From: Bacteroidota bacterium | Lineage (GTDB): Bacteria; Bacteroidota; Bacteroidia; 2-12-FULL-35-15 | Length of the DNA stretch: 64,000 bases | Assembly: GCA_021323165.1 (NCBI GenBank) | Contig: JAJTCJ010000005.1 | Span: 3,056 to 67,055, forward strand | Direction of reading: 5' to 3' | Shown here: piece after piece, positions 8,438 through 59,698 of the stretch | Layout of the letters: every line of letters begins with the position of its first letter | Position numbering within the stretch: position 1 is the first letter of the stretch | Position numbers and translations under genes: made by a program | The notes under the pieces: generated by a model | What the model was told of the DNA's origin: nothing | Databases searched by the model: none | Seen by the model: only the letters and a program-made list of their open reading frames with translations

Positions 8438-8532
8438 ACTCTTTTAAAGCCTTGCTACGCAAGGCTTTTTTTATTCCCTATATTATTATAAGTTCCCTAT
8501 ATCAACACTGTGGAAAGACAAAAGCTTCATTC

Positions 8533-9096: not shown

Positions 9097-9159
9097 GGTA
9101 ACATAAAGATACTACACCTATCCAAATAAATCTCTGTCCTTTTACTTATATTTACTCTT

Positions 9160-27004: not shown

Positions 27005-28180
27005 TTATTTAAATTCGTTAATTAAACGGAGAAAAATTGCATTGGTCCATCCAAATCCAAATTGGGTCGGATATCTTGATGGATTGTAAATTCCTATTTC
27101 ACATTTAACCACATCATGCTTTTCCCAAAACTTGCCCGTTTCCATAAATAGTTTATGATTCATATCAAGCCATTTCCTTGCGATGCGCATCGCATCATCT
27201 GAATATCCATAATTCAGAAGTCCTTTTATTACTATCCATTGCTGATGCGGCCAGCCATTAGGAAAATCATGCTGTTTAAGATCAGAAGATAATCTATGTT
27301 GCTGTGTGTTAACTACTCCCCCATCATATTCAAACATCGGTAAAATGTATTCTTTGATTGATGCAGCTTGTTCTGGACTCGCTAAACCTGCCCACATTGG
27401 ATAAAACCCCGCAACAGAAATGAACTTACTTTGTACTTTCTTCTTATAATCATAATCATAATAGAACTTTTTCTTCTTGTTCCACATTAATTTATCTATT
27501 TCAGTTCTTCTCCTTTCAGCCATATCAAAATACATTTTTGATTTCCTCGGATTTTTATACTCTTTGAAAAATTTTGCTAAGTCCATTTCGTACTTATACA
27601 AACATGAATTGAGATCTATAGGCAAATAATCAAGGCAACGATCTTTAAATCGCGATGTCATATCCCAACCCGATTCATGTTCTGAACCAAGGTGTGTTAT
27701 AAAATGATCACAATAACGGGAAAGGCCATTATAAACAATATGAGTTTCAGTGAGTGACTCATTCTTCCAGTATTTTTTTAATTCCTTTTCAGCCACATTC
27801 ATTACTTTATTTAACCATAATATGTCTTTGTCATAAGAAAATACTTCTAATGCCATTGAAGTTAAAAAGGGTGGCTGTGACGTTCCCAAATTATAATACC
27901 TGTTACGCATAGGGATAATTCCAAACCGATCAAACAAATAGCAAAAATTATCTACCATTCCTTTGGCCAGATTATTCTTATTTGCTTTAACTAACCCAAG
28001 AATTGTAAAGTATGAATCCCAATAAAACTGATCATTCTTAAAAATTATATTGTTAGGTGAAATGAATTTATTAGGAAGCCCCAAATGCAGTTGCTTGTCA
28101 TGTGGGTGATAACAGGTTATTTTTTTCCAATAATTTTTTATATACAACAGGCTTTCTTTATACTCCTCGCTATTGATCAT
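27005..28180 (-). CDS. GH37-family trehalase-like glycosidase (cytoplasmic, no signal peptide)
   Basis: DQFYWDSYF and QHDFPNGWPHQQW resemble the two GH37 trehalase signatures. It lies 2 nt upstream of the OtsAB fusion. Confidence 0.7.
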   Translation of the reverse strand: MINSEEYKESLLYIKNYWKKITCYHPHDKQLHLGLPNKFISPNNIIFKNDQFYWDSYFTILGLVKANKNNLAKGMVDNFCYLFDRFGIIPMRNRYYNLGTSQPPFLTSMALEVFSYDKDILWLNKVMNVAEKELKKYWKNESLTETHIVYNGLSRYCDHFITHLGSEHESGWDMTSRFKDRCLDYLPIDLNSCLYKYEMDLAKFFKEYKNPRKSKMYFDMAERRRTEIDKLMWNKKKKFYYDYDYKKKVQSKFISVAGFYPMWAGLASPEQAASIKEYILPMFEYDGGVVNTQQHRLSSDLKQHDFPNGWPHQQWIVIKGLLNYGYSDDAMRIARKWLDMNHKLFMETGKFWEKHDVVKCEIGIYNPSRYPTQFGFGWTNAIFLRLINEFK

Positions 28181-28314
28181 TTTTTTGTATATTCAAATTG
28201 ATTTTTCTTTTGCTTTTTTAACCTCTTTCTTAACCAATAAGCAATAAAAAGAAGTATACTTAATATGATTAAAACAAGAAATACAACTATCGCAACCAAT
28301 CCTAGATAAACCAT
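28177..28314 (-). CDS. Unannotated 45-codon single-TM small ORF, translationally coupled to the trehalase gene
   Basis: Hand translation gives MVYLGLVAIVVFLVLIILSILLFIAYWLRKRLKKQKKNQFEYTKK. Its TGA overlaps the trehalase ATG (ATGA at 28180-28177). It is below the ORF-track size cutoff. Confidence 0.45.
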   Translation of the reverse strand: MVYLGLVAIVVFLVLIILSILLFIAYWLRKRLKKQKKNQFEYTKK

Positions 28315-28367
28315 TTTGCTATGAGCTTAAGTTCATTGCAAAGATCGATATTCAGGAAAGTTGCTTC

Positions 28368-28385
28368 AATGACAATTGTCAATTT
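28368..28385. promoter_or_regulatory. Crp/Fnr-type palindromic box 1 (core TGACAATTGTCA) abutting a minus-strand promoter for the trehalose operon
   Basis: CAATGACAATTGTCAATT. On the minus strand it is followed directly by TTG (28369-28367), a 20-nt spacer, and GATCTTTG (28346-28339, one mismatch from TAnnTTTG). Confidence 0.55.
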
Positions 28386-28434
28386 TAAACTTTATTTATC
28401 TAACTTGATTGTCCTTTATTCAATAGCATAAATG

Positions 28435-28470
28435 AAAAAAACCTGCCAAATGTTAAAACACATGACAGGT
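28435..28470 (-). terminator. Minus-strand rho-independent terminator inside the divergent intergenic region
   Basis: The minus strand reads acctgtca-(14-nt loop)-tggcaggt followed by T6-7. It sits between the two palindromic boxes. Confidence 0.6.
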
Positions 28471-28524
28471 TCGGAGATATATAAATTATTTACAGGTCAA
28501 AGATAGTAATTGCGACTCCAGGCA

Positions 28525-28544
28525 AAATTGACAATTGTCAATTT
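28525..28544. promoter_or_regulatory. Crp/Fnr-type palindromic box 2, a perfect 20-bp palindrome
   Basis: AAATTGACAATTGTCAATTT is its own reverse complement. It matches the TTGA-N6-TCAA FNR/CRP-family layout and lies 32 nt upstream of the Crp-family gene ATG at 28576. Confidence 0.65.
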
Positions 28545-28575
28545 CAATTCTTATAAAAACATATATTATTACTTA

Positions 28576-29271
28576 ATGGAATATAATATTGAAAATTATC
28601 ACCTGAAATCTTCTTCGCTTTTCGATTTTCTTTCCAGCGAGGAAACTAAGCTTGTTAAAGGCAAAATGGTCCGAAAGGAATATGACAGAGGGGAATATCT
28701 ATTTAAAGAACAAAGCTTTTCTCGCGGGATTTATATTATTAGAAAAGGAAAGGTGAAGATATTTCAAACAAACAACGAAGGGAAACAAAGTATTGTTTAC
28801 ATATATAAAAAAGGTGAATATTTTGGATACCGGCCAATACTTGCTAAAGAGCCACACCCGGTGTCTGCGGTAGCCATGGACAATGTTGTTATTTCTTTCA
28901 TCTCCAAAGATTTATTCCTTAATCTTTTGGAGGGCTCTTCGACTTTGGCTAACGAATTACTGTATACCTTGTCAAAAGAATTTTCAGTGTGGGTAAATAA
29001 AATGACAATATTTTCTCAATACGGGGTAAAAGAAAGGGTAGCCTTAAGTCTTTTGATACTAAACCAAGTTTATCAACAAAACGATGAAAAAAATAAGCCT
29101 GTTTTAATAGCTATCAATAGAGAAGATTTTGCGGGATTCGTAGGCACTGCCAAAGAAACGCTTGTAAGAATGCTTCGCATCTTTAAAGATGAAAAAATTA
29201 TAACAACAAGGGGGACAAAAATAATTATCTTAAAACCGAAAGTGCTGTTAAATATGATAGCCACATTTTGA
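28576..29271 (+). CDS. Crp/Fnr-family transcriptional regulator (cNMP-binding domain plus C-terminal HTH)
   Basis: RGIYIIRKGKVKIF beta-roll segment and C-terminal REDFAGFVGTAKETLVRMLRIFKDEKII HTH. The ORF-track start at 28510 would include palindrome box 2, so the ATG at 28576 is preferred. Confidence 0.85.
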   Translation: MEYNIENYHLKSSSLFDFLSSEETKLVKGKMVRKEYDRGEYLFKEQSFSRGIYIIRKGKVKIFQTNNEGKQSIVYIYKKGEYFGYRPILAKEPHPVSAVAMDNVVISFISKDLFLNLLEGSSTLANELLYTLSKEFSVWVNKMTIFSQYGVKERVALSLLILNQVYQQNDEKNKPVLIAINREDFAGFVGTAKETLVRMLRIFKDEKIITTRGTKIIILKPKVLLNMIATF

Positions 29272-29384
29272 TTTTTCCTATAAATTATACTTTCAGTCAT
29301 TTCAGAGTTAAAATCCTGAGCATTATTAAACGCAAGATTAGCTTACAAAAAGAAACCAGCAACCTTTTTTATTGGTATTTTTAG

Positions 29385-29951
29385 ATGGTGAAAGAATTGC
29401 TTGAACATATCAAAACCATCTATCCACTTTCTGCTGAATCTCAATCAGCCTTATCAGAGATCTGCAAAGAAATCAAATTCACTAAAGGAGAGAACATTCA
29501 GGATATTGGCCATACCTGCAAAACCATTTACTTCGTTAAAAAAGGTGTTGTACGTATCTATTACTTCAAAGATGCCACTGACATCACTGAAAGTTTTGAG
29601 TTTGAAAATTCATTTGTCGCGAGAGCAGAAAGCTTATTTACCGGCAAACCTTCAAGAAAAGCAATACAGGCAATTGAAGACACCACTCTCATCGCTATTG
29701 ACTCCAACAAGCTTTTTAAATTCTTTAATTCTTATTCAGATCTCGAACGTATGTTCAGGAAAATAATAGAGTCTTCGTATGTGAATACAGTAAATCGTAT
29801 TGAAAGTCTGCAGTTCAATACAGCAGAAGAGCGTTATAAGTCTTTACTCAAAGATGCACCCGACACTCTTAAACGCATTCCCCTAAAATACATAGCCTCT
29901 TATCTGGGGATCACCCAGGTAAGTTTAAGCCGGATCAGAGGCCTTAAGTGA
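29385..29951 (+). CDS. Crp/Fnr-family transcriptional regulator
   Basis: cNMP-binding-like N-terminal domain (TIYFVKKGVVRIYY) and C-terminal HTH (LKYIASYLGITQVSLSRIRG). Confidence 0.8.
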   Translation: MVKELLEHIKTIYPLSAESQSALSEICKEIKFTKGENIQDIGHTCKTIYFVKKGVVRIYYFKDATDITESFEFENSFVARAESLFTGKPSRKAIQAIEDTTLIAIDSNKLFKFFNSYSDLERMFRKIIESSYVNTVNRIESLQFNTAEERYKSLLKDAPDTLKRIPLKYIASYLGITQVSLSRIRGLK

Positions 29952-29953
29952 TT

Positions 29954-29971
29954 ATTTATCATATGATAAAT
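29954..29971. promoter_or_regulatory. Perfect 18-bp palindrome upstream of the MFS-rhodanese-DsrE genes (candidate operator)
   Basis: ATTTATCATATGATAAAT is self-complementary. It lies 3 nt after the regulator stop and 44 nt before the MFS start. Confidence 0.45.
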
Positions 29972-30014
29972 TTTATCCTGAATGGTAGCCATAGCTTTGC
30001 TGTAAATAAAGCAA

Positions 30015-31325
30015 GTGATGAATACCGTAAAGCTAGGTCTTAAAGAAAACAGGACGCAATTTATATTGCTAGTAATTGTTAATGCTTTTGTTGGCGGCAT
30101 GATTGGACTTGAAAGATCAATACTTCCAAAAATTGCTGAAGCCGAATTTCATCTCGCAGCAAAAACTGCTATACTGTCTTTTATTGTGGTATTTGGTATT
30201 GTAAAGGCAATCACTAATTTTTATGCAGGAACATTTGCAAATAAGTTTGGTCGCAAAAATTTGCTGGTGACAGGCTGGATCATTGCATTGCCAATACCGT
30301 TCATTCTGATGCTCGCTCCAAACTGGAACTGGATAATTGCTGCAAATATCTTATTGGGCTTGAGCCAGGGATTGACCTGGTCAAGCACCGTTGTAATGAA
30401 GATCGACCTGGTTGGAGAAAAGGAGCGTGGTTTTGCAATGGGCTTAAATGAATTTGCCGGTTACCTGGCTGTCGCGATAGTCGCTTTTATTACCGGTTGG
30501 ATCGCAGGGAACATAGGATTGCGTCCATATCCGTTTTATATTGGCATAGCTTTGTCATTTCTCGGATTGATCATTAGCTGGATTTTTATAAAGGATACCA
30601 AACATCATGTTGCTAAAGAAGCAGAAACAAATAGCATCCGCAAACTGAAAAACATTTTTTGGGACACAACGATCTTTGATGCCAATCTTGGTTCTGTCAC
30701 ACAAGCCGGGTTGATCAATAATTTAAATGATGGGATGGTATGGGGACTCTTCCCTATCATTCTTTATCAAAAGCACTTTAACCTTTTTGAAATTGGGATC
30801 ATTACAGCTATTTATCCTGCTGTATGGGGGCTTGGACAACTATTTACAGGGAAAATGGCGGATAAATTCTGTAAAAAAAATGTGCTCTTCTGGGGAATGT
30901 TGCTGCAAGGTATCGCACTCATCTTTTTGATCTCAGCAAATACTTTTCTTCATTTTGCAATCATTTCGGTAGTGCTTGGCTGGGGCACCGCAATGGTCTA
31001 TCCCACTTTCCTCGCTACTGTTGCAGAATACACGCACCCGCATGATCGCGCAAAGAGTTTAGGGACATTCAGATTGTGGAGAGATCTGGGATATGCATTC
31101 GGAGCAATTCTAACTGGAATAATAGCGGATGCATTTAACATCAACACTTCCATAATTATTATTGCGCTGCTAACCATTGGATCCGCATACATCATCGAAT
31201 ACAGGATGAGATGTAAACCTCATGCGATCAAACTGACTGATTGGCTTTTCAATAAACTAACAAGAAATAAAAATGGAGCAAAAAACATCCATAAGCTCTG
31301 CGGAACTGAAAAAACTGCTTGCTGA
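30015..31325 (+). CDS. MFS transporter
   Basis: About 12 TM helices. The loop 2-3 motif GTFANKFGRKN is MFS-like, and a second half-repeat is present. Confidence 0.8.
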   Translation: MMNTVKLGLKENRTQFILLVIVNAFVGGMIGLERSILPKIAEAEFHLAAKTAILSFIVVFGIVKAITNFYAGTFANKFGRKNLLVTGWIIALPIPFILMLAPNWNWIIAANILLGLSQGLTWSSTVVMKIDLVGEKERGFAMGLNEFAGYLAVAIVAFITGWIAGNIGLRPYPFYIGIALSFLGLIISWIFIKDTKHHVAKEAETNSIRKLKNIFWDTTIFDANLGSVTQAGLINNLNDGMVWGLFPIILYQKHFNLFEIGIITAIYPAVWGLGQLFTGKMADKFCKKNVLFWGMLLQGIALIFLISANTFLHFAIISVVLGWGTAMVYPTFLATVAEYTHPHDRAKSLGTFRLWRDLGYAFGAILTGIIADAFNINTSIIIIALLTIGSAYIIEYRMRCKPHAIKLTDWLFNKLTRNKNGAKNIHKLCGTEKTAC

Positions 31326-31572
31326 AAATAATAATGTCCGGATTCTTGATGTAAGAACCGAAGCTGAATTCAATGAGCTTCACCTACCAAGGGCAATTAA
31401 TATTACAGAAGATAAAATCGAATTCTTCGAAATATTTAAAGATGAAATAATTATAACCACCTGCGGAAAAGGGGGAGGAAGATCCGAAAAAGCAGCGAAA
31501 CTGATTCGAAACAAAACAAAGAACAAGGTTTATTTTCTTGAAAATGGTACATTTGGATGGTATTCAAAATAA
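31273..31572 (+). CDS. Single-domain rhodanese-like sulfurtransferase
   Basis: ILDVRTEAEFNELHLPRAINI and active-site loop CGKGGGRS. The 5' end overlaps the MFS gene by 53 nt. Confidence 0.8.
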   Translation: MEQKTSISSAELKKLLAENNNVRILDVRTEAEFNELHLPRAINITEDKIEFFEIFKDEIIITTCGKGGGRSEKAAKLIRNKTKNKVYFLENGTFGWYSK

Positions 31573-31577
31573 ATAAA

Positions 31578-31931
31578 ATGAAAGCACTATTTATTATTAA
31601 TGAAGCTCCTTCGGGCAACGAAAAAATTTACAATGCCTTGAGGACAGCGCGACAATTACAAAAAGATTTTCAGGATTGCGAGATCCGAATGTATCTTCTG
31701 GCTGATGGCGTGTTTTGTACTCTTCCAAATAAAGGCATGCCTGCCGGAGTTTATAATATTTCACAAATGATGACAGACTTTATTACTGCTGGCGGCAAGG
31801 TGAAGATGTGCACTTCCTGCGGAGAATCAAGAGGTCTGAAAGAAATGAAGTTACTTGAATCTATGGAATGGGGTAATTTAAAAGACCTAACATCATGGAT
31901 CGCTGACAGCGACAAAATCCTGACGTATTAA
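31578..31931 (+). CDS. DsrE/DsrF-family sulfur-relay-like protein
   Basis: ALFIINEAPSGNEKIYNALR...YLLADGV...MCTSCGESRG matches the DsrE-like fold pattern. The ATG at 31578 is preferred over the TTG at 31557, which overlaps the rhodanese stop. Confidence 0.7.
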   Translation: MKALFIINEAPSGNEKIYNALRTARQLQKDFQDCEIRMYLLADGVFCTLPNKGMPAGVYNISQMMTDFITAGGKVKMCTSCGESRGLKEMKLLESMEWGNLKDLTSWIADSDKILTY

Positions 31932-31947
31932 GATCGCTCATTAATCT

Positions 31948-31974
31948 CAAAGCCTTTCAGAAATGAAAGGCTTT
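31948..31974 (+). terminator. Terminator hairpin, same family as 15177 and 20391
   Basis: aaagcctttc agaaat gaaaggcttttc. Confidence 0.75.
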
Positions 31975-32155
31975 TCTCTTGTTCAATGTTTCACACATCA
32001 TTCTGAATAATTATAACTCCCGATAAACATGACGTGTGAATCATGCAAGTCTTCCCTACAATTGTGTAACAGAAAAAAATGAATGCTTCTCATCTTTGTA
32101 TCGTGAAAACAATTCACATCTGTCCGCCAGCAGCGGAAATTAATAAAAATAAAAA

Positions 32156-33238
32156 ATGATAAAATATAAAAAAATGTTTTCGGTGTTTGCAGCAGCAGCC
32201 GTGTTATTAACAGCAGCTTGTAAAAAAGAAGAATCAAACGGACCAGCAACTGTTCCTTCAACTCCCTCAATAACTGCAAAAAGTCCGGCAGCAAATGCAA
32301 GCAATGTTTCCCTTAATAAAGTAATATCTGTAACCTTTAGTGAGGCAATGGATGCTTCAACAATTAATACGACCAATTTCACTTTAAAACAGGGAACACT
32401 AAACATAAGCGGTATAGTCGCATATGAGGGAACAACGGCCACTTTCAAACCAACAGCCCTTTTAACTGCAGGAACTACTTATTCCGTTTTGATTACAACA
32501 AACATCAAAAGTTCCCAAGGTATTGCGATCGCTGCCGAAAACTCCTGGACATTTTCAACAGGCACCAATGCAACCGGACTGACACCTGTCAACCTTGGAT
32601 CAGCAGACAATTATGTTATACTTGCTAAAACGGCAATAAATAACAGCCCTACATCAACCATCACAGGAGATTTAGGACTAAGCCCTGCAGCAACATCGTA
32701 TATTACAGGCTTCTCCATAACCAATGCAACAGGTTATGCAACTTCAGCACAGGTGACTGGTAAATTATATGCAGCAGACATGGTAAGCCCTACACCAATT
32801 AATCTTACTACCGCTGTAAATGATATGATCACTGCTTATAATGATGCAGCAGGTCGTACTTCACCGGATTTTTCTCAACTTGGAGCGGGAAATATAGGTA
32901 GCAAAACACTTACAGAAGGACTTTACAAATGGACGAATACTGTGACAGCACCTACAAACCTAATAATTTCAGGAAGTTCAACTGATGTTTGGATATTCCA
33001 GATTGCAGGAAACCTTTCAGTAAGTTCTAATGTGAAAATAACATTGAGCGGAGGAGCTCAGGCCAAAAATATTTTCTGGCAGGTAGCAGGTACTGTTACA
33101 ATTGGTACTGGAGCTCAATTTAAAGGAGTTATCTTATCGCAGACAGGAGTTACTTTAAGAACAGGAGCATCACTTAGCGGACGTGCATTGGCTCAAACAG
33201 CTGTTATTCTTGATAAGAATGTTGTAACACAACCATAA
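32156..33238 (+). CDS. Ice-binding-family (DUF3494) lipoprotein with N-terminal Ig-like (Big_5/SbsA-type) domain
   Basis: Lipobox LLTAAC. The Ig-like segment is NASNVSLNKVISVTFSEAMD...TNFTL. The DUF3494 body is LGSADNYVILAKTAI...ITGDLGLSP...AYNDAAGR...LTEGLYKW...DVWIFQIAG...NIFWQVAG...GRALAQTAVILDKN. Confidence 0.8.
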   Translation: MIKYKKMFSVFAAAAVLLTAACKKEESNGPATVPSTPSITAKSPAANASNVSLNKVISVTFSEAMDASTINTTNFTLKQGTLNISGIVAYEGTTATFKPTALLTAGTTYSVLITTNIKSSQGIAIAAENSWTFSTGTNATGLTPVNLGSADNYVILAKTAINNSPTSTITGDLGLSPAATSYITGFSITNATGYATSAQVTGKLYAADMVSPTPINLTTAVNDMITAYNDAAGRTSPDFSQLGAGNIGSKTLTEGLYKWTNTVTAPTNLIISGSSTDVWIFQIAGNLSVSSNVKITLSGGAQAKNIFWQVAGTVTIGTGAQFKGVILSQTGVTLRTGASLSGRALAQTAVILDKNVVTQP

Positions 33239-33264
33239 TTTATTTAGAAAGTAATTATACTAAT

Positions 33265-33300
33265 AGACCGCCTCAGAAGTAAAATTCTGAGGCGGTCTTT
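33265..33300 (+). terminator. Rho-independent terminator after the ice-binding gene
   Basis: 14-bp stem agaccgcctcagaa / ttctgaggcggtct with loop gtaaaa, then ttt. Confidence 0.75.
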
Positions 33301-33354
33301 ACTTATGTAAATCTTTAACTTTTTTGCCGAAAAATATAAATTCAATTCTTTTTT

Positions 33355-33535
33355 CTTTTTGTCTTGAAACAAAAAGAAACAAAAAGTTCAAGGCTGAACG
33401 ACTCCCTCCCGCTCTGCCATTTTCACGAAAAACCTAAAGCAAAAAAACTAAAGTTTTTGCTAAGGTTTTCAATGAAAATGACATTCACATCTTAACGACA
33501 TCGCGTTCAGCCAAGCCTCACGCGCGTCTTCGAAC
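33355..33535 (+). repeat. Left copy of a diverged inverted pair of a structured (candidate ncRNA or hairpin) element
   Basis: Hairpin A is 33355-33376 (ctttttgt/acaaaaag, loop cttgaa). A rod-like hairpin B is closed by 33392-33400 ggctgaacg with 33504-33512 cgttcagcc. Its inner stems are 33415-33425 with 33473-33483, and 33439-33445 with 33454-33460 (loop aactaaag). Confidence 0.7.
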
Positions 33536-33689
33536 TATGATATTTCTATCATTAATGATATTAGAATTCAAAATGGAGATTCTGCTCTTAGGGTGAGGTT
33601 TTGAGCCTGTATAGCGATAGCGGAAATGAACGCTATTGAAAATTAATCTTTCGTTAACATACCAGATCATTAATAATTAACAAATTATA

Positions 33690-33875
33690 GTTACGAAGCC
33701 GCGCGTTAGGTTTGATCAGGCGCGATGTCGTGTAGCGGTGAACAGTATTTTTCAAGAAAATCTAGGCAAGAGCTTTAGTTCTCTTGACTTTAGATTTCCT
33801 GAAAAATGCTGAGAGGCGGGAAGCAATCGCCTGATCTTGATTTTTTTGTAACTTTTTTTATCAAGAAAAAAAGTT
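33690..33875 (-). repeat. Right copy (reverse orientation) of the same structured element
   Basis: Read on the minus strand it aligns with the left copy. Hairpin A' is 33850-33875 (loop cttgat). The closing stem is 33828-33836 with 33714-33722 (gatcaggcg/cgcctgatc). The inner stems are 33798-33811 with 33743-33756, and 33781-33786 with 33767-33772, with an identical aactaaag loop. Confidence 0.7.
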
Positions 33876-33946
33876 AAACATCAAAAAAAATTCAATGTGA
33901 GATCGCTGAACCGGTTATTCCAAAGAAATAACTAATTTAGTCCTTA

Positions 33947-34414
33947 ATGCAACTCCTTAATAAATACAAAGAAACCATCATCTTTGGCATCTCCATGGCA
34001 GCATTGCTGATCCTTCTTAAATTGCTGGAGGCTAATTTCATTGTTTTTAATTACAGATTAGATTTCTTTATTGGTGCCATTGCTATCATATTTACAGTTT
34101 TAGGAATCTGGCTGGCACTTAAGCTTGTTAAACCGAAAATAGAAACCCGGATTATTGAAAAGGAAGTTTATATCAATACTCCGGTTCAAAAGGAAATTGA
34201 TCTAGGGGAAATTGAAAAACTGGGCTTAAGCAAGCGCGAACTGGATGTTTTAAATTTAATGGCAACCGGATTAAGCAATGAGGAAATTGCCGGGAAATTA
34301 TTTATAGGTGTAAATACGGTTAAAACACATTCTTCCAATATTTTTGTGAAACTGGATGTCAAAAGACGGACACAGGCGGTCGAAAAAGCTAAACGGCTGA
34401 ATATCATACAGTAG
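33947..34414 (+). CDS. Membrane-anchored LuxR/GerE-family HTH regulator
   Basis: Two N-terminal TM helices, then LSKRELDVLNLMATGLSNEEIAGKLFIGVNTVKTHSSNIFVKLDV, the LuxR C-terminal HTH. Confidence 0.85.
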   Translation: MQLLNKYKETIIFGISMAALLILLKLLEANFIVFNYRLDFFIGAIAIIFTVLGIWLALKLVKPKIETRIIEKEVYINTPVQKEIDLGEIEKLGLSKRELDVLNLMATGLSNEEIAGKLFIGVNTVKTHSSNIFVKLDVKRRTQAVEKAKRLNIIQ

Positions 34415-35832: not shown

Positions 35833-38800
35833 ATGAGGAAAAAACATTTACTTTATCTAATATTCATAGTCTTAGGAAGTTTTCATACAACTGCTCAGCC
35901 TCCCTGTGCACTCAACCTCACACCTTCCAGCGCCACAATTTGTTCCGGCACTTCTGTTGCATTAACGGCCTCCGGTGGCTCTTCATATACGTGGTCTCCA
36001 TCCACTGGCTTAAGTGCGACTAACCTTGCGACTGTTACTGCTAATCCTGTTGTTACTACCACATACATGGTTATTGCTGATTGCGGTGCCGGACAAAAAG
36101 ACACCAATTACATTACAGTAACAGTTAATCCAATACCGAATAGCCCTCCTATTACCGTAACAAATAATAACACTTGTGGCGGTACTTCTATGAGTTTTTC
36201 AACTCCTGCACAAGCCGGAGTTTCTTTTGCATGGGGATTTGGAGATGCTACAGCTGCAAATGGAGCTAGTGTTACTCACATCTATAACCCTAGTCCGGGT
36301 GATGGTAATCAATCTTTTACTGCAAGCGTAGTTGCAACCAATTCTTTTGGTTGTTCTAATTCAACATCACAGGTGATAACCGTAAAACAACGGCCCGATG
36401 CTTCAATAAGCGACTTTACCAGTGATGTTGCATTTACAAATTGTGGGAATACTGATTTTGATCTGATCATTGATAATACATCAACAACAACTGCTACAAA
36501 TTCTTTGTATCAAATTAATTGGGGGGATGGGTCGCCTGTATTTTCTACAGCTAATTTACCTTCCACCGGAACAACGCATACATACACTTCTCAGGGTTAT
36601 TTCACACTTACCTTAACTGTTACAGGATTAAATGGCTGTATCTCAACGAAAACTTATTCGGTATATAATGGTGGGAATCCCGCTGTTGGTTTAGGTAACC
36701 CGGGAGCAACAGTAGAACTTTGTCTGCCTTTTTCACTTACCTTTCCTATTACAGGAACTTCATCGAATCCTGCAGGTACAACGTATACAATTACCACAAA
36801 CACTGGAGCACCCTCTGTAACATACTCACACCCTCCACCAGCCAGTTATACTCATGTTTTTAATACAACGTCCTGTGGAGCAACCGGTGCAAATACACCT
36901 AACTCATTTTATGTTAGAATAAAAGTTGAAAATCCCTGTGGCTTTTCTGAATCTACTGTATCTCCGATTACTACCGCATCAAAGCCAGTTGCTCTATTTT
37001 CAGTCTCGCCTGACAGTATAGCCTGTGTCAACTCACTTGTTACATTTACCAATTTAACTACACCAAGCATTCTTGTTACAAACAATGGGGTGTGTGATGG
37101 CACAACAAAAATAAATTGGTTAATATCACCGGGGACGGGATGGGCTGTAAGTACTGGTACGCTAGGAAATGCAAGTCCGAATATTAATAATCCGGCAACA
37201 TGGGGCTCTAATGCTTTAGGTGTTACTTTTTCAGTTCCAGGTCAGTATGTTATAACTTTAATTACAGCAGGAAAAAAATGCGGGAATGATACGCTCAGAA
37301 AAACGATTTGCATTCAAGGTCCTCCCGCACCATCCTTTACTGCAACTCCATTGATCGGTTGCACTCCATTGGTTTCAAATTTCACAAATACTTCAACTGG
37401 CGTTCCTACCTGCGGACCAACAATACGATTGTGGGTTGTCACTAAAACCAGCTCTAACTGTATTGCAGATTCAACATCAGATTACACTTTTATTTCTGGT
37501 ACAAACTCCAGCTCAGTAAATCCTGTAATTCGATTTAATAACCAGGGAACATATAATGTAACACTTTCTCTTACGAATAGATGCGGTACATTCATCTCAA
37601 CGCCCACAACTTTTACCGTAAAGCGAAAGCCACAGGTAGCAATTACGATACCTCCTAATATTTGTGCAGGTCAAACTTTATCAGCTACATCAACAGTGAC
37701 AAATTGTGCAGATAATCCATTAACATATTTATGGAGTTTTGCGGGTGGAACTCCTGCGAGTTCAACGTTAGCTACTCCTCCTCCAATTTCATTTTCTACT
37801 TCAGGTTCTCATTTAATATCCTTGTCTGTTACTAATGAATGCGGTACGGGCACAGTCTCCTCCTCTGTAAATGTTTTAACCATACCAATTGCAAATGCCG
37901 GTACAGACAAACAAATTTGTTCAGGCGCCAGCACAACTTTGGGAAGTGCTTCAACTGCTGGCCTAACTTATCAATGGTCGCCAACTACAGGTTTAAGTTC
38001 TTCAACAATTTCAAATCCAACTGTTACGATTTCTAATGGAGGTATTAGTCCTCTTGTTTCCACATATTCTTTAACCGTTACTAATGCAGCTAATTGTTCG
38101 GCTACAGACGTAGTGGATGTTACAGTCAATCCTATTCCCGCAATGACAAACACGACCAGTGTTACTATATGCAGTGGAGGATCGTTAAATATTCCTTTAA
38201 CAAGTACAGTAGCCTCAGCTTATAGTTGGATGGCAGGCGATAATCCGAGTACAGCGGGTGAAAGCTTAACTGCACAAGCAACATCTACTATCAATAACAC
38301 CATCACAAATTCAACTGCAACATCACAAATTGTTACTTATTCAGTAACTCCTGTCAGCTCTGCCGGCAGTTGCACCGGAAGCTCTCAAACTATTACTGTT
38401 ACTGTGTTACCTGTGCCAGTGGTTACAAGTGCTACAACTGCAACAATTTGCAGCGGGAATACTTTAAATGTTTCCATAACAAGTAATGTAACATCAACCT
38501 ATTCCTGGATCGCGACAAACAACGCAAATACAACAGGAGAAAGTTTAACGGCTCAATCAACCGGTGTTATTAATAACACGATCATAAACAACACATCCAA
38601 CAACCAAACGGTTAACTATTCAATTACTCCAACTTCAACAACCGGAAGTTGTTTGGGAAATTCACAAGCATTGGTGGTTACGGTAAATCCGAGTCCAACT
38701 ATGACAAGTGCTGTCTCTGCATCTGTTTGCAGTGGAACCTCTTTAAACATACCTCTTTCCAGTGATCTTCCTTCGACCTACAGTTGGGTTGCAACTGATA

Positions 38801-41800
38801 ATGTGAATACCACAGGTGAGAGCCTTACAGCTCAATCAGGATCGAGTATTAATAATACGGTTATAAATAATTCAGCAACTGCACAAACAATCAACTACAG
38901 TATTACTCCTGTTTCAACAGCCGGATCTTGTGCAGGTACTCCACAAATTGTTGCTGTTACAATTAATCCAGCCCCGACTATGACGAGTGCTTCTTCTGCA
39001 ACAATATGCAGTGGAGCTTCGGTAACTATTCCTTTAACGAGTAACATGACTTCAACATATACCTGGATCGCTGGTAATAATCCAGGTACAAATGGAGAAA
39101 GTATTGCCCTTCAAAACTCCGGTACATTAAGTAATACGATAACTAATTCTACTCAAACAGTACAAACAGTAACATACACTGTAACGCCAAATGCGACAGC
39201 AGGAAGCTGTGTTGGAAATACGCAAACTGTCACTGTAGATGTTATTCCTGTACCGACAATGACCAATGCAGCTACAGCAACAATTTGCAGTGGAGCGGCA
39301 CTCAACATCTCATTAACCAGTAATATTCCTAGTGCTTATACTTGGATAGCCTCAGACAACGCAAGCACATCCGGTGAAAGTTTAACTCTTCAAACTACAG
39401 GCATCATCAACAATACAATAATCAACAATACTGCTGCAGTACAAACAGTAACATATACCGCTACTCCTACTTCAACTACGGGAACTTGTAGTGGTACTCC
39501 TCAAACAATTATAGTAACTGTAAATCCGGCACCAGCCATGACAAGTGCAACCTCAGCAACTATATGCAGTGGTGGAAGTTTAAACATTCCCTTAACAAGT
39601 GATTTACCTTCGACCTATGTATGGATTGCAGCTGACAATATTAATACAACAGGTGAAAGCCTTTTAATTCAAAACTCTAATCTGATAAACAACACCATTT
39701 TAAATAACACAGCAAGTGCTCAAATACTTACTTATTCAGTAACACCTACTTCAAGCACCGGAGCTTGCATTGGTGCTCAACAAATAGTTTCTGTTACCGT
39801 TAATCCTGCTCCTACTATGACGAGCGTTTCTTCTGCTACGATATGCAGTGGGGCCTCAGTAAATATTCCTTTAACCAGTAATATGCCTTCAACATATACC
39901 TGGATCGCTGGTGATAATCCTGGTACAAATGGAGAAAGTATAGTTATACAAAACTCCGGCACATTAAATAACACAATAACGAATAACACTCAAACAGTAC
40001 AAACCGTAACATATACTGTAACGCCAAATGCGACAGCAGGAAGCTGTGTTGGAAATACGCAAACTGTCATTGTAGATGTTATTCCTGTGCCGACAATGAC
40101 CAATGCAGCTACAGCAACAATTTGCAGTGGAGCGGCACTCAACATCTCATTAGCCAGTAATATTCCTAGTGCTTATAGCTGGATTGCTTCAGACAACGCA
40201 GGCACTTCCGGTGAAAGTTTAACTCTTCAAACTACAGGCATCATCAACAATACAATAATTAACAACACTGCTACAGTACAAACAGTAACATATACAGCAA
40301 CTCCTACTTCTACCACGGGAACATGCAGTGGTATTCCTCAAACAATAATAGTAACTGTAAATCCTGCACCAGCTATGACAAGTGCAACTACAGCAACTAT
40401 TTGCAGTGGTGAAAGTTTGAACATTTCCTTAACAAGTGATTTACCTTCTACCTATACCTGGATTGCAACGGATAATATTAATACAACAGGAGAAATCCTT
40501 GTAATTCAAAACTCCGGTCTGATAAACAACACAATTATAAATAACACATCCAGTGCTCAAATACTTACTTATTCAGTAACACCTACTTCAAGCACCGGAG
40601 CTTGTATTGGTTCTTCACAAATAGTTACTGTTACCGTTAATCCTACACCGGTAATGACGCCACCTGCCAGCGTTACTCAATGTGCAGGAGTAAGCACATC
40701 AGCAATCATTTTCAATAGCAATCCAGGCGGAACATCTTATAATTGGACAAACAGCAATACTTCAATTGGATTGGCTGCTAATGGAGTTGGAAACATTACA
40801 AGCTTTACTACTTCTAATTTAACCAATGCTGCCATAAGTGGAACTATCAGTGTTACATCAACTCTGAATGGTTGTGTAAGTTCACCTTCTGCTTTTACCA
40901 TAACAGTTAACCCAATTCCAACTGCTACAGCTTCACCGGGCAATTCAACTATTTGTTCCGGAATTCAAACCAACATTAACATAGCATCAAATGTTGCAGG
41001 CACTACATTTTCCTGGACAGCAAATTCTCCGGCAAGCGTTAGCGGTGCTGCAAATGGAAATGGTAATTCCATTCAGCAAACATTGAGCAACACAAGTTCG
41101 GCTATTGAATTGGTGACTTATATAATTGTTCCTACAGCAAATAACTGTATTGGATCTCCAATAATTGATTCTGTTTTTGTTAATCCCGGAGTTACCATTA
41201 GCTTCTCTCCTTCTTCACAGACCTTGTGCTCAAATCAAACATCACAAGTAGTAACAATCTCAAGTGCCACAACAGGCTTAATTTACAGTTGGACGGCCCA
41301 GGCGAATGGAGCCGGTGGAGTTACAGGTTCAGGATCAAATACAATTCCTCCACAGGTATTAACTAATTCAACCAATTCACCTATTCAGGTGGTATACTCT
41401 ACAACCGCAACATTTGCTGGTTGCCCTACTCCTCCTTTCTTATATTCAATAACTGTTAATCCTCTTCCATCCATTGTTTTACCTGCTAATCAAACAGTAT
41501 GCTCTTCAGTTTCAACTGCGGCAGTAAATATTTCTTCACCGGTAGCGGGCACCACATTCACCTGGACTGCGACATCTACAAATGGGATCACAGGATTTCC
41601 TGCAAATGGATCTTCTTCAAGCATCCCTGCTTTCATTCCTAATAATCCCGGAAATACAGCCGGAACTATAGACTATACGATCACGCCTATTGCTAACAAT
41701 TGTCCCGGCCTGCCAGTCAATTACACTTATACAGTTAATCCTATTCCGGTAATAAGCAGTATTCCATCTCAAACAATTTGTAGCGGCCAGACAACAACAA

Positions 41801-44800
41801 TGGTATCACCTGTTTCTGCAGTTGCAGGAAGTACTTTTAGCTGGAGCTCTGCAACCGGTCCTAATATTTCAGGTAATACTGTTTCAGGTGCAGGGAATAT
41901 ACCTCCGGAAACGTTAAACAACTCCAATGCTTTCGCAGAAACAGCTACTTACACTATAATTTCAAATGCGAATAACTGCACTTCAAGTTCAACATTTATA
42001 GTTAACGTAAATCCAAGTCCGGCAGCTGCATTTTCAATTGCTCCGCAAATTATTTGTTCAGGTGAAAATACCCAACAAGTAAATTTAAGTTCAGGCACTC
42101 CCGGAGCAAGTATTAGCTGGAACGCGACTATCCCGCCAGGAATTAGTGGGGGCGCAACTTCCGGAACAACTACAATCCCTCAGCAAACGTTAATCAACAG
42201 TACTAATCAACCATTAACTATTATTTACGATGCTCAGGCTGCAACAACCGGAACTGCAATTTGTCCGGGCACAACCACCACTTACTCTATAACAATAAAT
42301 CCTACTCCTGATGTAATTGTTACCCCCGGACAAACAACTATTTGTTCAGGTATACAAACCAATATCTCTCTTACATCAAATGTTGCAGGCACTACATTCA
42401 GCTGGACAGTGAGTGCGCCTTCAACAATTACCGGAGCATCAAACGGCAGCGGGAATACTATTCAACAAACTCTTTCTAACAATGATATAATAAGTCAAAA
42501 CGTTACTTATACAATTATTCCATCAGCGAATAATTGTCCGGGAAATCCTGTTACCGTTACCATAACAGTTCATCCCGTTCCCACAATAAATTTCTCACCG
42601 GTATCACAAGCTTTATGTTCAGGGGAAACTTCACAAGTGGTTACTGTTACTAGTCCGACAACAGGCGTGTCATTTAACTGGACAGCGTCCGCAAGCAGCG
42701 GAAGTGTTAATGGATTTACAACAAATGGATCAGGTAACCTTCCGGCTCAAACTTTATTTAATTCATCTACTTCAATTCAAACTGTAGATTATATTGTAGA
42801 TGCAGGATTTTCCGGATGCCCGGGCCTTTCCAATACTTACACTATAACCATACATCCTTTACCAATAGTAAATTTTACATTTGATTCAATTGATTGCGTG
42901 AATGTACCTCTAACATTCACGGTAAATCCGGCCCTGGCAAATAATTATACATGGGATTTCGGTGATGGAAACACTACAGGCAACACTACGGGAAATGCGA
43001 TTCATACTTATTCTTTGAGCGGTAATTATAACATAAGCCTTATTGAAGCTACTGCATTTGGTTGTATTGATTCTTTAAGCAAATCAATAGAAATCATTGA
43101 TCCTCCTACCGCTGATTTTACTACTCTACCCGATTCAGGTTGCGCACCTTTAAATGTAGCCTTTGTGAATAATTCAACCGGAAGTTATACTTCCTTCAAC
43201 TGGGATTTTGGGAATGGTAATTCAACAATACTTTTCTCACCGTTGAATCAAACATATCAGCAGGGATTATACGATACTACCTACCAGGTAGAATTAACTG
43301 TTACTAATCAATGTGGTGTTAGTACCTTGATCAAGCCAGTTGTAGTTAAACCGAAGCCTGTTGTATCATTAGGAACAAACTTCGATTCCGGCTGTTCTCC
43401 ATTCCATCTGATTATAAATAATACTTCCACAGGAAATGCCACTCAATATATAATGGATTTTGGCGATGGCAGTCCATTACTTATCACTCCAACAAGAGAT
43501 TCGATCAGTCACTTATATTACACGGGAACACAGGACACAACATATACGATAACCTTGATTGGAATAAATTCATGTGGAAACGATACGATAACAAAAACAA
43601 TATTAGTGCATCCACATGATGTTATCGCATTGTTTAATACCAGCTCTGTTTCAGGATGCGCACCTTACGCTATTACATTCACTGATGCATCATCCGGAGC
43701 AACATTTACATCATGGGATTTCGGAGACGGGAATGTTTCGACTACTCTTAGCGTAACGCATACATACCAAAATCCGGGAACATATACGTGCTATGAATAT
43801 GTTAATAATGGTTGTAGTTACGACACAACCTCTGTAACAATTACAATTCATCCTTCACCAACTTTATCCTTCACTTCTGACGGACCATCAGCTTGTGTGA
43901 ATCAACCGGTTGCATTTACAAACACTTCTTCAAATTCTGTCAACTACAGTTGGAACTTTGGCGATGGAACATATTCCTATCTTACAGATCCAATACATAA
44001 CTATAGTTCTGCAGGTACATATATTATTACATTAACCGGAACATCGGCTGTATATGGTTGTATTGACAGTGTATCCCACTCTATTATAATTGACTCTCTT
44101 CCTGTCCCACAAGCCTCATCCAGTGTACTGTTTGGATGTGCACCCTTAAATGTCGCTTTTACGAATACATCAACTAATTCTAATTTTTATTCCTGGAACT
44201 TTGGTGATGGTAATACATCCTCTACGCCTTCACCGAGCAATTTGTTTGTTGCGCCAGGAATTTATAACGTACAACTAATTGCCGTGAACTTGAATAATTG
44301 CAAAGATTCAATTCAACTTCAGATCAATGTAAATCCAAAACCCGTGGCAGCTTTTAGTATGTCTTCTACCTACAGTTGCTCGGCTCCGGCACCGGTAATT
44401 TTTACAAATAATTCCACAGGAGCAGTAGGCTACTTGTGGGACTTTGGGAACGGTACTACTTCAACAATGAATAATCCTTCCGTTACCTACTCTACTTTTA
44501 ATCAATACCCAATTTCACTTGTAGCATCTAATATATATGGATGTAAGGATACTGTTACTGATATCTATAATGTGTATCAACCTCTTGTTGCTTCATTCAG
44601 CTCTGATGTTCAATCAGGTTGCGAGCCTCTTAATGTTACATTCACTCCGTTTCAAAGTGGTAATATTTATAATTGGAACTTTGGGGATTCCACTTTCTCT
44701 AATGCGAATATTCCATCTCACATATATCCGAATGCAGGAAATTATTATGTTTCTGTAACTGTGACATCCTCAAGCACTCCCTGCACCAGTTCTTATACTA

Positions 44801-45408: not shown

Positions 45409-45438
45409 AACATCAATTGATTTAAATAATTTTTATCA

Positions 45439-46548
45439 ATGAAAAGGATTGCACTATTTACTTTTTTATTAATACAATTGGTCACAAAGGCTCAGGATCC
45501 TGTGTCTTCTCAATTTTATTTCAATCAATTGTATCTTAATCCGGCATTTGCAGGAATTAATCACAGCGCACGATTCGGAGGAACATACCGGAATCAATGG
45601 ACTGCGATCCCAAGCAAATTTGTAACCTATAATTGCTGGGCCGACATTTATACACCTTCTATGTTTCAGGGTGGCCTGGGCATTATGGCCATGCAAGACA
45701 TTTCCGGAGAAGGATTTCTCAAAACTACCAGTGTTGGTATAATCCAATCATACGAATTTATTCTTCCCAATAAAATTGCAAGATTACGAACAGGATACAA
45801 TGTTACTATTACTAACAAAAAAATAGATTGGAGTAAATTGGTTTTTAGCGACCAGCTGGATGGTATTCATGGCAATGTAAACACATCAAGCGTTTCAGCG
45901 GGCAATCCGGATGGTAAGACCTTTGCGGACATTGATGCAGGTTTAATACTTGAGTTTAGGAAAATTCAAAAGGAAAAGTTTATCGTTACACAAAGTGCCG
46001 GTTATGCCGCAAATCATTTAACACAACCAAATGAATCTCTGCTTGGAACAGAATATAATATTCTACCCATGAAACACACGATGCATTATACCTTAATGAT
46101 TGAATTAAGAGATGATAAGAGTCCATGGTTTGTTTCTCCAAATATTATTTACGAGCGTCAGGGAACTACACCTGAAAAAGGAGTTTTTCCTTACAACAAG
46201 AAATCTCAATTTTCAACTTTGAACCTGGGTATATATTTAATGCACAAACCTTTGGTAACAGGCTTTTTCTACAGAAAAAGATCGATAGCAAAAACGAAAG
46301 ACCGGGATTCCTTTATTTGTTTCCTGGGAGTTTATTTAGAAACTTCAAAAACCTCTATTGTCAAGATTGGCTACAGCTACGATTTCACAATAAACAATCT
46401 AGCTTCTAACACTTCCGGATCTCATGAAATAAGCTTGTCAATGGAGTTTAAGGATTTTAAACTTATCAGTAAAAAGGCCCAGATGCGGAAGAGAAACAAA
46501 CGGGTAATGGACTGTACTGATTTTGGAGATCATACAATGTTATTTTAA
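45439..46548 (+). CDS. PorP/SprF-family T9SS outer-membrane protein
   Basis: The N-terminus AQDPVSSQFYFNQLYLNPAFAG is the family hallmark. It lies immediately downstream of a type B CTD cargo gene, the usual pairing. Confidence 0.85.
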   Translation: MKRIALFTFLLIQLVTKAQDPVSSQFYFNQLYLNPAFAGINHSARFGGTYRNQWTAIPSKFVTYNCWADIYTPSMFQGGLGIMAMQDISGEGFLKTTSVGIIQSYEFILPNKIARLRTGYNVTITNKKIDWSKLVFSDQLDGIHGNVNTSSVSAGNPDGKTFADIDAGLILEFRKIQKEKFIVTQSAGYAANHLTQPNESLLGTEYNILPMKHTMHYTLMIELRDDKSPWFVSPNIIYERQGTTPEKGVFPYNKKSQFSTLNLGIYLMHKPLVTGFFYRKRSIAKTKDRDSFICFLGVYLETSKTSIVKIGYSYDFTINNLASNTSGSHEISLSMEFKDFKLISKKAQMRKRNKRVMDCTDFGDHTMLF

Positions 46549-48742: not shown

Positions 48743-48833
48743 CAAAAAAAAATATCATTGGTGGAGGAAAACACTCTGCTGTTTTTATTAAAAATCCGAA
48801 GCCAGCTGCTTCAAAATAAAATGCATCTACTCA

Positions 48834-49997: not shown

Positions 49998-50000
49998 AAT

Positions 50001-50423
50001 ATGGGAGCCTGGGGAATAAACAACTTTGATAATGATGGCGCAATGGACTTTAGCTCTGATGTGGTTGAAGGAGATAGATCATTCATTAAAGACGCCATAC
50101 TTAAAGTAACGAACACTGGCGATGACGACTACCTCGAAGCACCGGATTGTGAAAACGCTTTGGCTGCAATAGAATTTATTGCTGCACAAAAAGGGAAACC
50201 CTCTCCTGATTTTCCTGAAGAAGCACAAGCATGGATCAAAAATAATGACCTGCTTAATTTCACGAGCGGACTCTTCAGAAAACGCATTGATATCACCGGA
50301 ATATCTTTACAGGCAATTGAAAGAATTGGAAGCAACTCCGAACTGCAGGAATTATGGGAAGAAGGTGATGAATATGAAGATTGGCTTAAAGTATTGGAAG
50401 ATTTGAAAAACCGTATTAAGTAA
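50001..50423 (+). CDS. DUF4259-like small cytoplasmic protein
   Basis: The N-terminus MGAWGINNFDNDGAMDF matches my memory of the DUF4259 signature. It starts 3 nt after the preceding stop. Confidence 0.55.
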   Translation: MGAWGINNFDNDGAMDFSSDVVEGDRSFIKDAILKVTNTGDDDYLEAPDCENALAAIEFIAAQKGKPSPDFPEEAQAWIKNNDLLNFTSGLFRKRIDITGISLQAIERIGSNSELQELWEEGDEYEDWLKVLEDLKNRIK

Positions 50424-50426
50424 ACA

Positions 50427-50456
50427 AAAAAGCCTGTTTTAAAAACAGGCTTTCTT
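50427..50456. terminator. Bidirectional terminator between convergent genes
   Basis: aaaaaagcctgtttt aaaaacaggctttct is an A-run / hairpin / T-rich arrangement usable on both strands. Confidence 0.65.
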
Positions 50457-50462
50457 TCTTTC

Positions 50463-51686: not shown

Positions 51687-51823
51687 TATTAATCTGGTAT
51701 ATTTTATTTAATTTTTAAATTACTTTTTGGGGTATTTATATTGAGTAACTTCCTTTATTATTTTGAAATATATAAAGCAATGGACTTCAAAGAATAAATA
51801 CCTTCTAAAAATCAATTGTCGTT

Positions 51824-57467: not shown

Positions 57468-57469
57468 TT

Positions 57470-59670: not shown

Positions 59671-59698
59671 TAGTATTTTTAATATTAAGTTTATATTT

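Follow-up and report, generated by a model that had tools for sequence, protein, structure and literature searches.

The general kind of element described here is already known, either as an orphan bacterial structured RNA motif or as an intergenic palindromic element. The example at hand is a candidate new structured non-coding element of ~540 bp, known from one locus in one metagenome-assembled genome of a Bacteroidota bacterium. It lies between the genes of an ice-binding protein and a small LuxR regulator, within a 64-kb window (the whole stretch of DNA that was analysed). The element consists of two diverged inverted copies, or arms, of one structured unit whose evolution has preserved structure. 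On the strands that point outward, each arm can form either of two predicted folds: in “fold A” a closing stem (P1) encloses an internal loop and a long irregular hairpin (the rod), while in “fold B” two local hairpins, (a) and (b), take the place of P1. Our preferred reading, to which we give a probability of roughly 0.4, is a non-coding cassette, specific to this strain and probably acquired horizontally, with two old structured-RNA paralogs of ~190-220 nt that are transcribed outward.

Relation to described structured elements

The closest described RNA is 6S RNA (Rfam 6S, 6S-Flavo, Bacteroidales-1). Fold A shares with it a rod of ~125 nt with a closing stem, a two-sided bubble with conserved bases and an apical stem-loop, and both have alternative hairpins within the bubble strands. 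In contrast to 6S RNA, the closing stem here is only 9 bp long, there are two diverged copies and the locus is dispensable and strain-specific; 6S RNA itself is a conserved housekeeping gene, whereas relatives lack the element at their orthologous locus. Identity with 6S RNA was rejected since none of the three models gave a match at E <= 10.

Riboswitch and attenuator platforms offer a second comparison. As in these, two structures share a strand (P1 and hairpin (b)), a U-rich tract lies downstream and conserved unpaired bases are framed by covarying helices. Unlike these, the units are not followed by a gene that shares their transcription unit, and what the left unit faces is the 3' end of an oppositely encoded gene.

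Among intergenic repeats, the likeness to ERIC, Correia/NEMIS, RUP and REPIN/BIME elements lies in a non-coding, intergenic position between a terminator and a promoter, in inverted hairpin units and in strain polymorphism. In BIMEs and REPINs, as here, two unit variants are inverted about a spacer. However, intergenic repeats and miniature inverted-repeat transposable elements (MITEs) have tens to hundreds of similar copies per genome and defined ends, whereas we found one locus, arms at 68% identity and conserved unpaired motifs between covarying stems. The units are also 5-10 times longer than a REP unit (~200 nt as against those of a REPIN), and no TnpA/RAYT was seen among the open reading frames (ORFs) scanned.

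Two further systems were considered and set aside. Integron attC sites are likewise imperfect hairpins kept by structure rather than sequence, and the left stem (GCTGAAC...GTTCAGC) fits RYYYAAC / GTTRRRY at 6 of 7 positions in each half. The right arm (GATCAGG...CCTGATC) lacks the AAC/GTT core, and attC was rejected on this ground; moreover, a cassette ORF and an integrase are missing, and the units form an inverted pair instead of a head-to-tail array. Retron msr-msd RNAs have, like the units, a short closing duplex (a1/a2 in the retron), unpaired segments and a long hairpin, and the sequence of the duplex is swapped between the two copies. Here the unpaired 5' segment measures only ~20 nt and has no msr hairpins. 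A retron was rejected because no reverse transcriptase is adjacent or present in the 26 ORFs scanned.

Two diverged inverted arms

The element and its main divisions are as follows.

33347..33887, no strand: whole non-coding element, ~540 bp, delimited by the homology breaks against the relatives L002 and L003
33340..33560, - strand (the better-supported, outward strand by minimum free energy (MFE) and G-U pairs; first read as +): left unit, or left arm
33561..33664: unique centre, ~104 nt, without dyad symmetry of its own
33617-33636: hairpin in the centre, ATAGCG-GAAATGAA-CGCTAT
33665..33895, + strand (by MFE and G-U pairs): right unit, or right arm, a paralog of the left arm with 68% identity to it

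The true ends of the element lie somewhere within 33300-33350 on the left and 33878-33897 on the right. When the spacer was searched against its own reverse complement, it matched itself with E = 5e-43 (nhmmer) and 66.8% identity over 536 nt (blastn). In a MAFFT alignment of 33340-33560 (+) with 33895-33665 (-), 150 of 221 positions were identical (68%). This bears out a first-pass annotation of the window, which had described an ORF-free locus with two diverged inverted copies at about two-thirds identity; its coordinates and sequences were correct, and the longest ORF in the spacer is only 50 aa. The unit is longer than the ~120 nt proposed there, as the arm homology gives ~190-220 nt, and the unique centre is ~104 nt rather than 154 nt, arm homology reaching 33560 and 33665. 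In the inward extension of the arms lie a small hairpin that covaries and, at 33666-33677, another near-copy of the palindrome (ATCATTAATAAT). Similarity between the arms is lowest at their extreme ends (58%), where there are no clean terminal inverted repeats. An assembly artefact was rejected, since an inverted chimera would yield identical arms and not arms at 68% identity.

Covarying helices and conserved unpaired bases

In the RNAalifold consensus of the two arms, all 49 pairs are standard in both copies: 15 differ on both sides, one differs on a single side, and not one pair is broken. As controls, the 3' partners were shifted by 1-3 columns, which left 1-2 double changes and 42-52% pairing, and column shuffles matched the observed pairing values in 0 of 500 cases. 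Paired and unpaired columns diverged alike (68% each), so the stems are not merely slow-evolving; they were changed and repaired. Each arm also folds better than shuffled sequence on either strand (z -4.5 to -6.2). The helices are listed below.

33392-33400 with 33504-33512: left closing stem P1, GGCTGAACG/CGTTCAGCC, 9 pairs, enclosing a large internal loop and the rod
33714-33722 with 33828-33836: right closing stem P1, GATCAGGCG/CGCCTGATC
33418..33480: left rod, capped by the loop AACTAAAG (33446-33453, + strand)
33743..33808: right rod, whose apical stem-loop (33767-33786) is capped by the loop CTTTAGTT (33773-33780, + strand)
33355..33376: left outer A/T hairpin, CTTTTTGT, loop CTTGAA, ACAAAAAG
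33852..33873: right outer A/T hairpin, CTTTTTTT, loop ATCAAG, AAAAAAAG
33537-33552: left inner hairpin, ATGATA-TTTC-TATCAT, overlapping the 12-bp palindrome ATCATTAATGAT (33548-33559)
33673-33688: right inner hairpin, ATAATT-AACA-AATTAT, overlapping the near-palindrome ATCATTAATAAT

Between the left and the right arm, six of the nine P1 pairs are doubly substituted. The apical stem carries two double changes below an 8-nt loop that is identical in both arms (33446-33453; 33773-33780), and the rod as a whole, read on the outward strand, has 24 pairs with 6 double changes and 4 one-sided changes of the G-U type. Three double changes separate the outer A/T hairpins and two the inner hairpins. The preservation of helices by compensatory changes, proposed in the first-pass annotation, thus holds (15 of 49 pairs double-changed, none broken), and the four helices tabulated there are all present in both arms; its middle stem in the right arm exists but has a C/A mismatch at the stem end.

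An additional A/T hairpin, TTTTTTGCCGAAAAA, lies just beyond the left arm at 33316-33340. It resembles the outer hairpin of the right arm in direct orientation (70% identity over 30 nt), so that the left side bears two such hairpins in tandem.

Between the helices, three unpaired motifs noted at first inspection (TCCCGC, TTCAC and ACGACATCGCG) were confirmed as conserved and were found nowhere else in the window.

33495..33505, + strand: 11-mer ACGACATCGCG of the left arm, conserved in both arms
33721-33731, - strand: 11-mer ACGACATCGCG of the right arm
33484-33488: TTCAC of the left arm
33407-33412: TCCCGC of the left arm

The 11-mer has only two exact copies in the window, one in each arm, compared to 0.16 expected by chance. 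A literature search for it returned unrelated primer sequences only.

These motifs bear on the idea that the locus is a functionless relic of an old inverted duplication in which template switching in quasi-palindromes keeps the stems perfect. The stems are indeed perfect, and block changes such as those in six adjacent P1 pairs arise more easily by templated events than by stepwise compensation; a relic would also suit an element that is dispensable and for which no homologs were found. We nevertheless regard it as very unlikely. Unpaired motifs of 5-11 nt have been kept exactly while the adjacent stems were replaced. P1 spans 112 nt and yet covaries, and there is in addition a three-way covariation (see below), for both of which local template switching is insufficient. 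Neutral DNA of 540 bp would not be expected to last until its arms had diverged by 32%.

Another possibility is that each arm encodes a small protein, given homologous mini-ORFs on the outward strands.

33488..33423, - strand: left mini-ORF, 21 aa, MNVIFIENLSK... MNVIFIENLSKNFSFFALGFS, with a GTG start in GTGAA
33738..33812, + strand: right mini-ORF, 24 aa, MNSIFQENLGK... MNSIFQENLGKSFSSLDFRFPEKC, with a GTG start in GTGAA

Both are open in the same frame, 10 of the 14 first residues are identical and five codons differ only synonymously. The excess of third-position changes (7:3:3) is not significant, though, the C-terminal halves and stop positions differ, and the gene calls of the source hold no gene there. 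Both mini-ORFs lie inside the rod, so that stem constraints explain the pattern, and coding is highly improbable.

Two predicted, mutually exclusive folds

For the outward strands, the structure preferred by RNAalifold has two local hairpins in place of P1.

33497..33528, - strand: left hairpin (a), pairing CGCGAUGUCG with CGAAGACGCGCG, the 5' half of P1 lying in its loop
33690..33736, + strand: right hairpin (a), with six G-U pairs
33396..33414, - strand: left hairpin (b), GAGCGGGAGGGAGUCGUUC, with two A-C mismatches if read on the + strand
33814..33832, + strand: right hairpin (b), AGGCGGGAAGCAAUCGCCU, terminator-like in a consensus scan

In the consensus of hairpin (a), the conserved CGCGAUGUCG is paired with CGAAG-CGCGCG, with one double and three one-sided changes; because of its six G-U pairs, the right copy forms on the + strand only. 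In hairpin (b), (G/A)(A/G)GCGG is paired with the 3' half of P1, with two double changes and one G-U/G-C change; this hairpin and P1 are therefore mutually exclusive. Folds A and B are both 100% paired in both arms and both covary, and the second covarying fold is possible on the outward strands only. The shared segment shows a three-way covariation: the 3' strand of P1 changes from GTTC to GCCT, its partner in P1 from GAAC to AGGC and the loop segment of hairpin (b) from GAGC to AGGC. A segment that covaries with two partners looks like a conformational switch, which with n = 2 sequences is only suggestive.

Which strand would be transcribed

The left arm has an MFE of -73.7 kcal/mol on the - strand and -51.0 kcal/mol on the + strand, and the right arm -65.9 kcal/mol on the + strand and -57.8 kcal/mol on the - strand. 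The minimum-energy folds contain 19 G-U pairs on the outward strands (10 of 75 pairs in the left arm, 9 of 83 in the right) compared to 0 and 2 on the inward strands, and the pairs that differ between the arms by way of a G-U intermediate number 8 on the outward strands and 1 on the inward. U-rich tails follow P1 and hairpin (b) on the outward strands only; nothing comparable was seen on the inward strands.

33837..33848, + strand: U-rich tract UUGAUUUUUUUG, directly after the right P1
33370-33391, - strand: left U-rich tract UUGAACUUUUUGUUUCUUUUUG, read from the sequence

The terminators at 33265-33298 and after the DsrE gene have T-rich tails comparable to UUGAUUUUUUUG and UUGAACUUUUUGUUUCUUUUUG. 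Overall, the outward orientation (left arm on the - strand, right arm on the + strand) is favoured by about two to one.

The first-pass annotation had placed the same pair of RNAs in convergent orientation (left +, right -). So oriented, the left arm might for instance stem from the 3' untranslated region of the ice-binding transcript, with the right arm running antisense to sequence upstream of LuxR. These strands, too, form fold A (P1, rod and outer hairpin) with 100% pairing and z of -4.8 and -5.4, and the left arm follows closely on the ice-binding gene, which has the same orientation. Convergent transcription is nonetheless improbable and that orientation probably wrong, as the G-U counts, the one-sided changes, the U-rich tails and the second fold all favour the outward strands. 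Read convergently, the folds have 0 and 2 G-U pairs as against 10 and 9, lower stability and no terminator-like feature after P1. The strong terminator at 33265-33298 separates the ice-binding gene from the left arm, and the two transcripts would collide in the centre.

Search for further copies and known families

To look for other copies we used exact motifs or searches that require ~65% identity, so that distant relatives could escape; within the genome itself, the search covered the 64-kb window and an extra 3 kb of contig. No third copy was present in the window by blastn, nhmmer or, with filters off, a covariance model of the core (R1), which left the two arms only. The same model, again with filters off, found none in the loci of relatives or in the extra 3 kb at the contig end.

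Across one genome per species from 185,579 species, the exact motif TTCAC..ACGACATCGCG..ACGCGCG gave 11 matches, all in high-GC unrelated taxa. Two exact patterns gave 0 and 24 chance matches in a metagenome collection that does not include the source contig, and three exact patterns gave chance matches only in viral contigs. All matches of the motif scans were rechecked with a two-arm nhmmer profile, which matched the source contig alone. BLAST against plasmid and phage records returned no match. As far as these searches reach, there are no homologs, an outcome that the first-pass annotation had listed among those that would speak against its interpretation.

Nor did Rfam 15 place the element. 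Over 32800-34400, with E <= 10 and permissive filters, the best match reached 25.7 bits compared to a threshold of 110, and it was a plant miRNA model aligned to the big palindrome. At the Rfam gathering thresholds the whole window yielded two tRNAs only. This agrees with the first-pass annotation, which could not assign the element to an RNA family.

The plasmid, phage and viral searches also bear on the proposal that a plasmid, a phage or an integrative and conjugative element (ICE) left behind a site that functions at the level of DNA. Such a site could be a single-strand initiation or origin signal, an origin of transfer or a site of recombination, with nested hairpins that would work while the DNA is single-stranded or cruciform. 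The combination of a rod-like hairpin and conserved unpaired bases is reminiscent of single-strand origins and single-stranded DNA (ssDNA) promoters. The nearly pure Watson-Crick pairing of the fold-A stems and the strain-specific occurrence of the locus fit as well. On the other hand, none of those searches gave a match, no replication, relaxase, integrase or phage gene is nearby or among the 26 ORFs, and two diverged inverted copies are atypical for such sites. We judge this proposal very unlikely.

Absence from close relatives

The element is strain-specific: it is present here and absent from the orthologous site of the relatives L002 and L003. In these two, LuxR is 97% identical and the same ice-binding gene lies directly upstream, with a spacer of 206 bp compared to 708 bp. 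Homology to the window runs through the terminator to ~33300 and resumes at ~33896; in place of the element these relatives have ~90 nt of unrelated sequence rather than a clean empty site. The idea that the L002 spacer keeps a remnant of the element was rejected, as 156 of 500 shuffles scored equally. In more distant relatives other genes or filler precede LuxR, and the element was in none of those examined. L078, for instance, has a spacer of 722 bp that is unrelated in sequence to the element. Beyond these examined loci, P0003 (94%) has a 746-bp gap upstream of LuxR.

Compared to the flanking non-coding divergence between the window and L002, the 32% divergence of the arms is far higher. 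The duplication thus predates the split of the strains, and the folds have long been maintained, which argues for function as a folded single strand. Two histories would account for this: loss of the element from the relatives, or its acquisition by this strain when the arms had already diverged.

Absence from relatives is also the first point in favour of a non-autonomous foldback or MITE-like DNA element that would have inserted between the ice-binding terminator and the LuxR promoter, its arms being recognised, possibly as folded ssDNA, by a transposase or recombinase encoded elsewhere. The size (~540 bp), the lack of coding capacity, the inverted arms and the “safe” A/T-rich intergenic site all fit, as do fold-A stems that are nearly all Watson-Crick, as in DNA hairpins, and the position upstream of LuxR, a hotspot for inserts among the relatives. 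A direct repeat flanks the element at the positions first reported for it.

33338..33346 and 33888-33896, + strand: 9-nt direct repeat AAATTCAAT

AAATTCAAT occurs in 3 copies in the window compared to 4.3 expected, and its flanking placement is weakly significant (chance probability ~0.05-0.1). The repeat stands 1-10 nt outside the arm homology and does not abut it on the right. When all excision junctions against L002 were scanned, the junction at the 9-nt repeat, which a target-site-duplication model would predict, was not favoured.

The MITE-like alternative raised in the first-pass annotation thus gains from the absence at the orthologous site and loses by the want of another copy, the unclear ends and a repeat of borderline significance. 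A foldback element is an unlikely reading, though the main rival and one to be taken seriously. No second locus was found in the 64 kb and the 3 kb of contig, nor any in the motif scans of species genomes, metagenomes and viruses or in the plasmid and phage BLAST. The arm ends are the least similar part (58%) and form no crisp terminal inverted repeat, and in an active MITE one would normally expect nearly identical arms rather than arms at 68% identity. The comparison with L002 shows no clean empty site, no transposase is encoded in the 26 scanned ORFs of at least 120 aa, and the conserved unpaired motifs are left unexplained.

A variable site upstream of LuxR

The inserts upstream of LuxR-DUF4199 differ in every relative examined (L002, L003, L004-L008, L078 and L079). 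They comprise an ice-binding gene, Polyketide_cyc2, HNH/RibD_C, SSB with the 722-bp filler, and an HD-domain gene with the 746-bp gap. From these comparisons, the site looks like a recombination or insertion hotspot.

The ice-binding block is itself shared between the window (31932-33300) and L002 (1369-2860), including an upstream terminator-like hairpin, AGCCTTTCAGAAATGAAAGGCT, and its own terminator. Since the genes to the left of the block differ (DsrE here, a response regulator in L002), the ice-binding gene behaves like a cassette of ~1.4 kb.

A contig of a near-identical strain in another data set (L117, Logan SRR35179664) corresponds to window ~27650-32089 and ends 158 bp past DsrE, before the ice-binding gene. 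No exact copies of the ice-binding, LuxR or DUF4199 proteins are on record for SRR35179664. The variable locus of that strain may differ or be heterogeneous.

Proposed mechanism and its weight

We infer that the units are RNAs, with the strand, transcript ends and function set out here. Transcription would run from the ~104-nt centre outward into both arms (- strand for the left unit, + strand for the right), and each RNA would start near the small hairpin that overlaps the ATCATTAATGAT palindrome. Each RNA would adopt one of two mutually exclusive folds. In fold A, the 9-bp P1 would enclose a two-sided internal loop with conserved CGAUGUCGU, GUGAA and GCGGGA together with the 24-bp rod; in fold B, hairpins (a) and (b) would replace P1. 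Each RNA would end at the U-rich tract after P1 and hairpin (b). The stem, bubble and long stem-loop of fold A recall protein-sequestering 6S RNA, and from this shape comes our guess that the units may act as free regulatory RNAs, the conserved loop bases providing the binding site for a protein or a nucleic acid.

Several observations weigh against two outwardly transcribed RNAs. The weakest point is that no sigma-70 or Bacteroidota -33/-7 promoter (TTTG / TAnnTTTG) was found in the centre or the element. The covariation comes from two sequences, too few for phylogeny-aware statistics. The almost pure Watson-Crick pairing of the fold-A stems is what a DNA-level hairpin would also give. The shuffle z-scores do not separate the strands (outward -6.2 and -4.6, inward -4.8 and -5.4), and the outward excess of G-U pairs partly reflects a composition with more G than C. 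The absence from close relatives shows that the element is dispensable, and having no homolog in the collections searched is odd for an RNA old enough for paralogs at 68% identity.

A bolder interpretation, which we consider doubtful, is that the locus represents either an undescribed bacterial RNA class on a small acquired cassette, in which two divergently transcribed paralogs switch between the 6S-like fold and the two-hairpin fold and serve as decoys or sensors for a protein, e.g., RNA polymerase or some other factor that binds nucleic acids, or a new foldback element with ~200-nt ends that are read as folded single strands.

If the units are RNAs, the little-studied Crocinitomicaceae-like Bacteroidota would gain a new structured RNA motif, and the dispensable cassette would suggest that regulatory RNAs move between strains in small gene-free cassettes; the evidence for two alternative folds is one paralog pair. 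As mobile DNA, the element would instead be of the foldback type, with structured ends of unusual length. On either reading the site beside the ice-binding cassette is a hotspot of strain-level variation in a bacterium of cold environments. The practical value is limited without more copies or transcripts.

Neighboring genes and other features of the window

The spacer between the ice-binding-protein gene and LuxR measures 708 bp and is bordered as follows.

32156-33238: ice-binding gene, left neighbor
33265-33298, + strand: terminator of the ice-binding gene, also kept in L002
33933..33940, + strand: -7-like promoter box of LuxR, TAATTTAG, 6 nt before the ATG (33947)
33947-34414: small membrane-anchored GerE/LuxR regulator, right neighbor

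The TAATTTAG box before the LuxR ATG is conserved in several relatives, including ones without the element. Its position would place the start of LuxR transcription beyond the element, and the LuxR mRNA seems to be leaderless. A role of the element as a LuxR leader or riboswitch was rejected, because the conserved box would place the start past the element; LuxR thus probably has its own promoter, judging from the sequence, and the element is probably not its leader.

On the left side lie genes for an MFS protein, a rhodanese, DsrE and the ice-binding protein, and on the right side LuxR, DUF4199, a glyoxalase-like protein and a 3191-aa PKD-repeat protein. Among named organisms, the LuxR protein has its nearest relatives in Crocinitomicaceae. 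The window belongs to a 426-kb contig of JGI metagenome 3300042904. Among the 26 window ORFs of at least 120 aa that were scanned, none encodes a transposase, integrase, reverse transcriptase, Cas or replication protein, and no relaxase or phage gene was found near the locus or among these ORFs. The gene calls of the source annotate no gene within the element.

At 55968-63958 (- strand; L113, L114) the window carries a type I restriction-modification locus with hsdM and hsdS, hsdR lying just past the window. It is interleaved with two AAA_15/AAA_21 ATPase genes and a 205-aa gene of unknown function, an arrangement that may represent a defence island. The 589-aa ATPase is found in identical form on a Logan SRR35179664 contig, which points to the near-identical strain in that data set.

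The 3191-aa PKD-repeat protein (35833-46548) is followed by a PorP/SprF type IX secretion component, with several Por_Secre_tail-domain proteins nearby at 46853-53473. Finally, two paralogous S41 peptidase genes (490 and 499 aa, + strand, ~870 bp apart) lie at 6814-10659, just after tRNA-Gly and tRNA-Leu (6248-6521), and a 187-aa ORF is located between them on the opposite strand.

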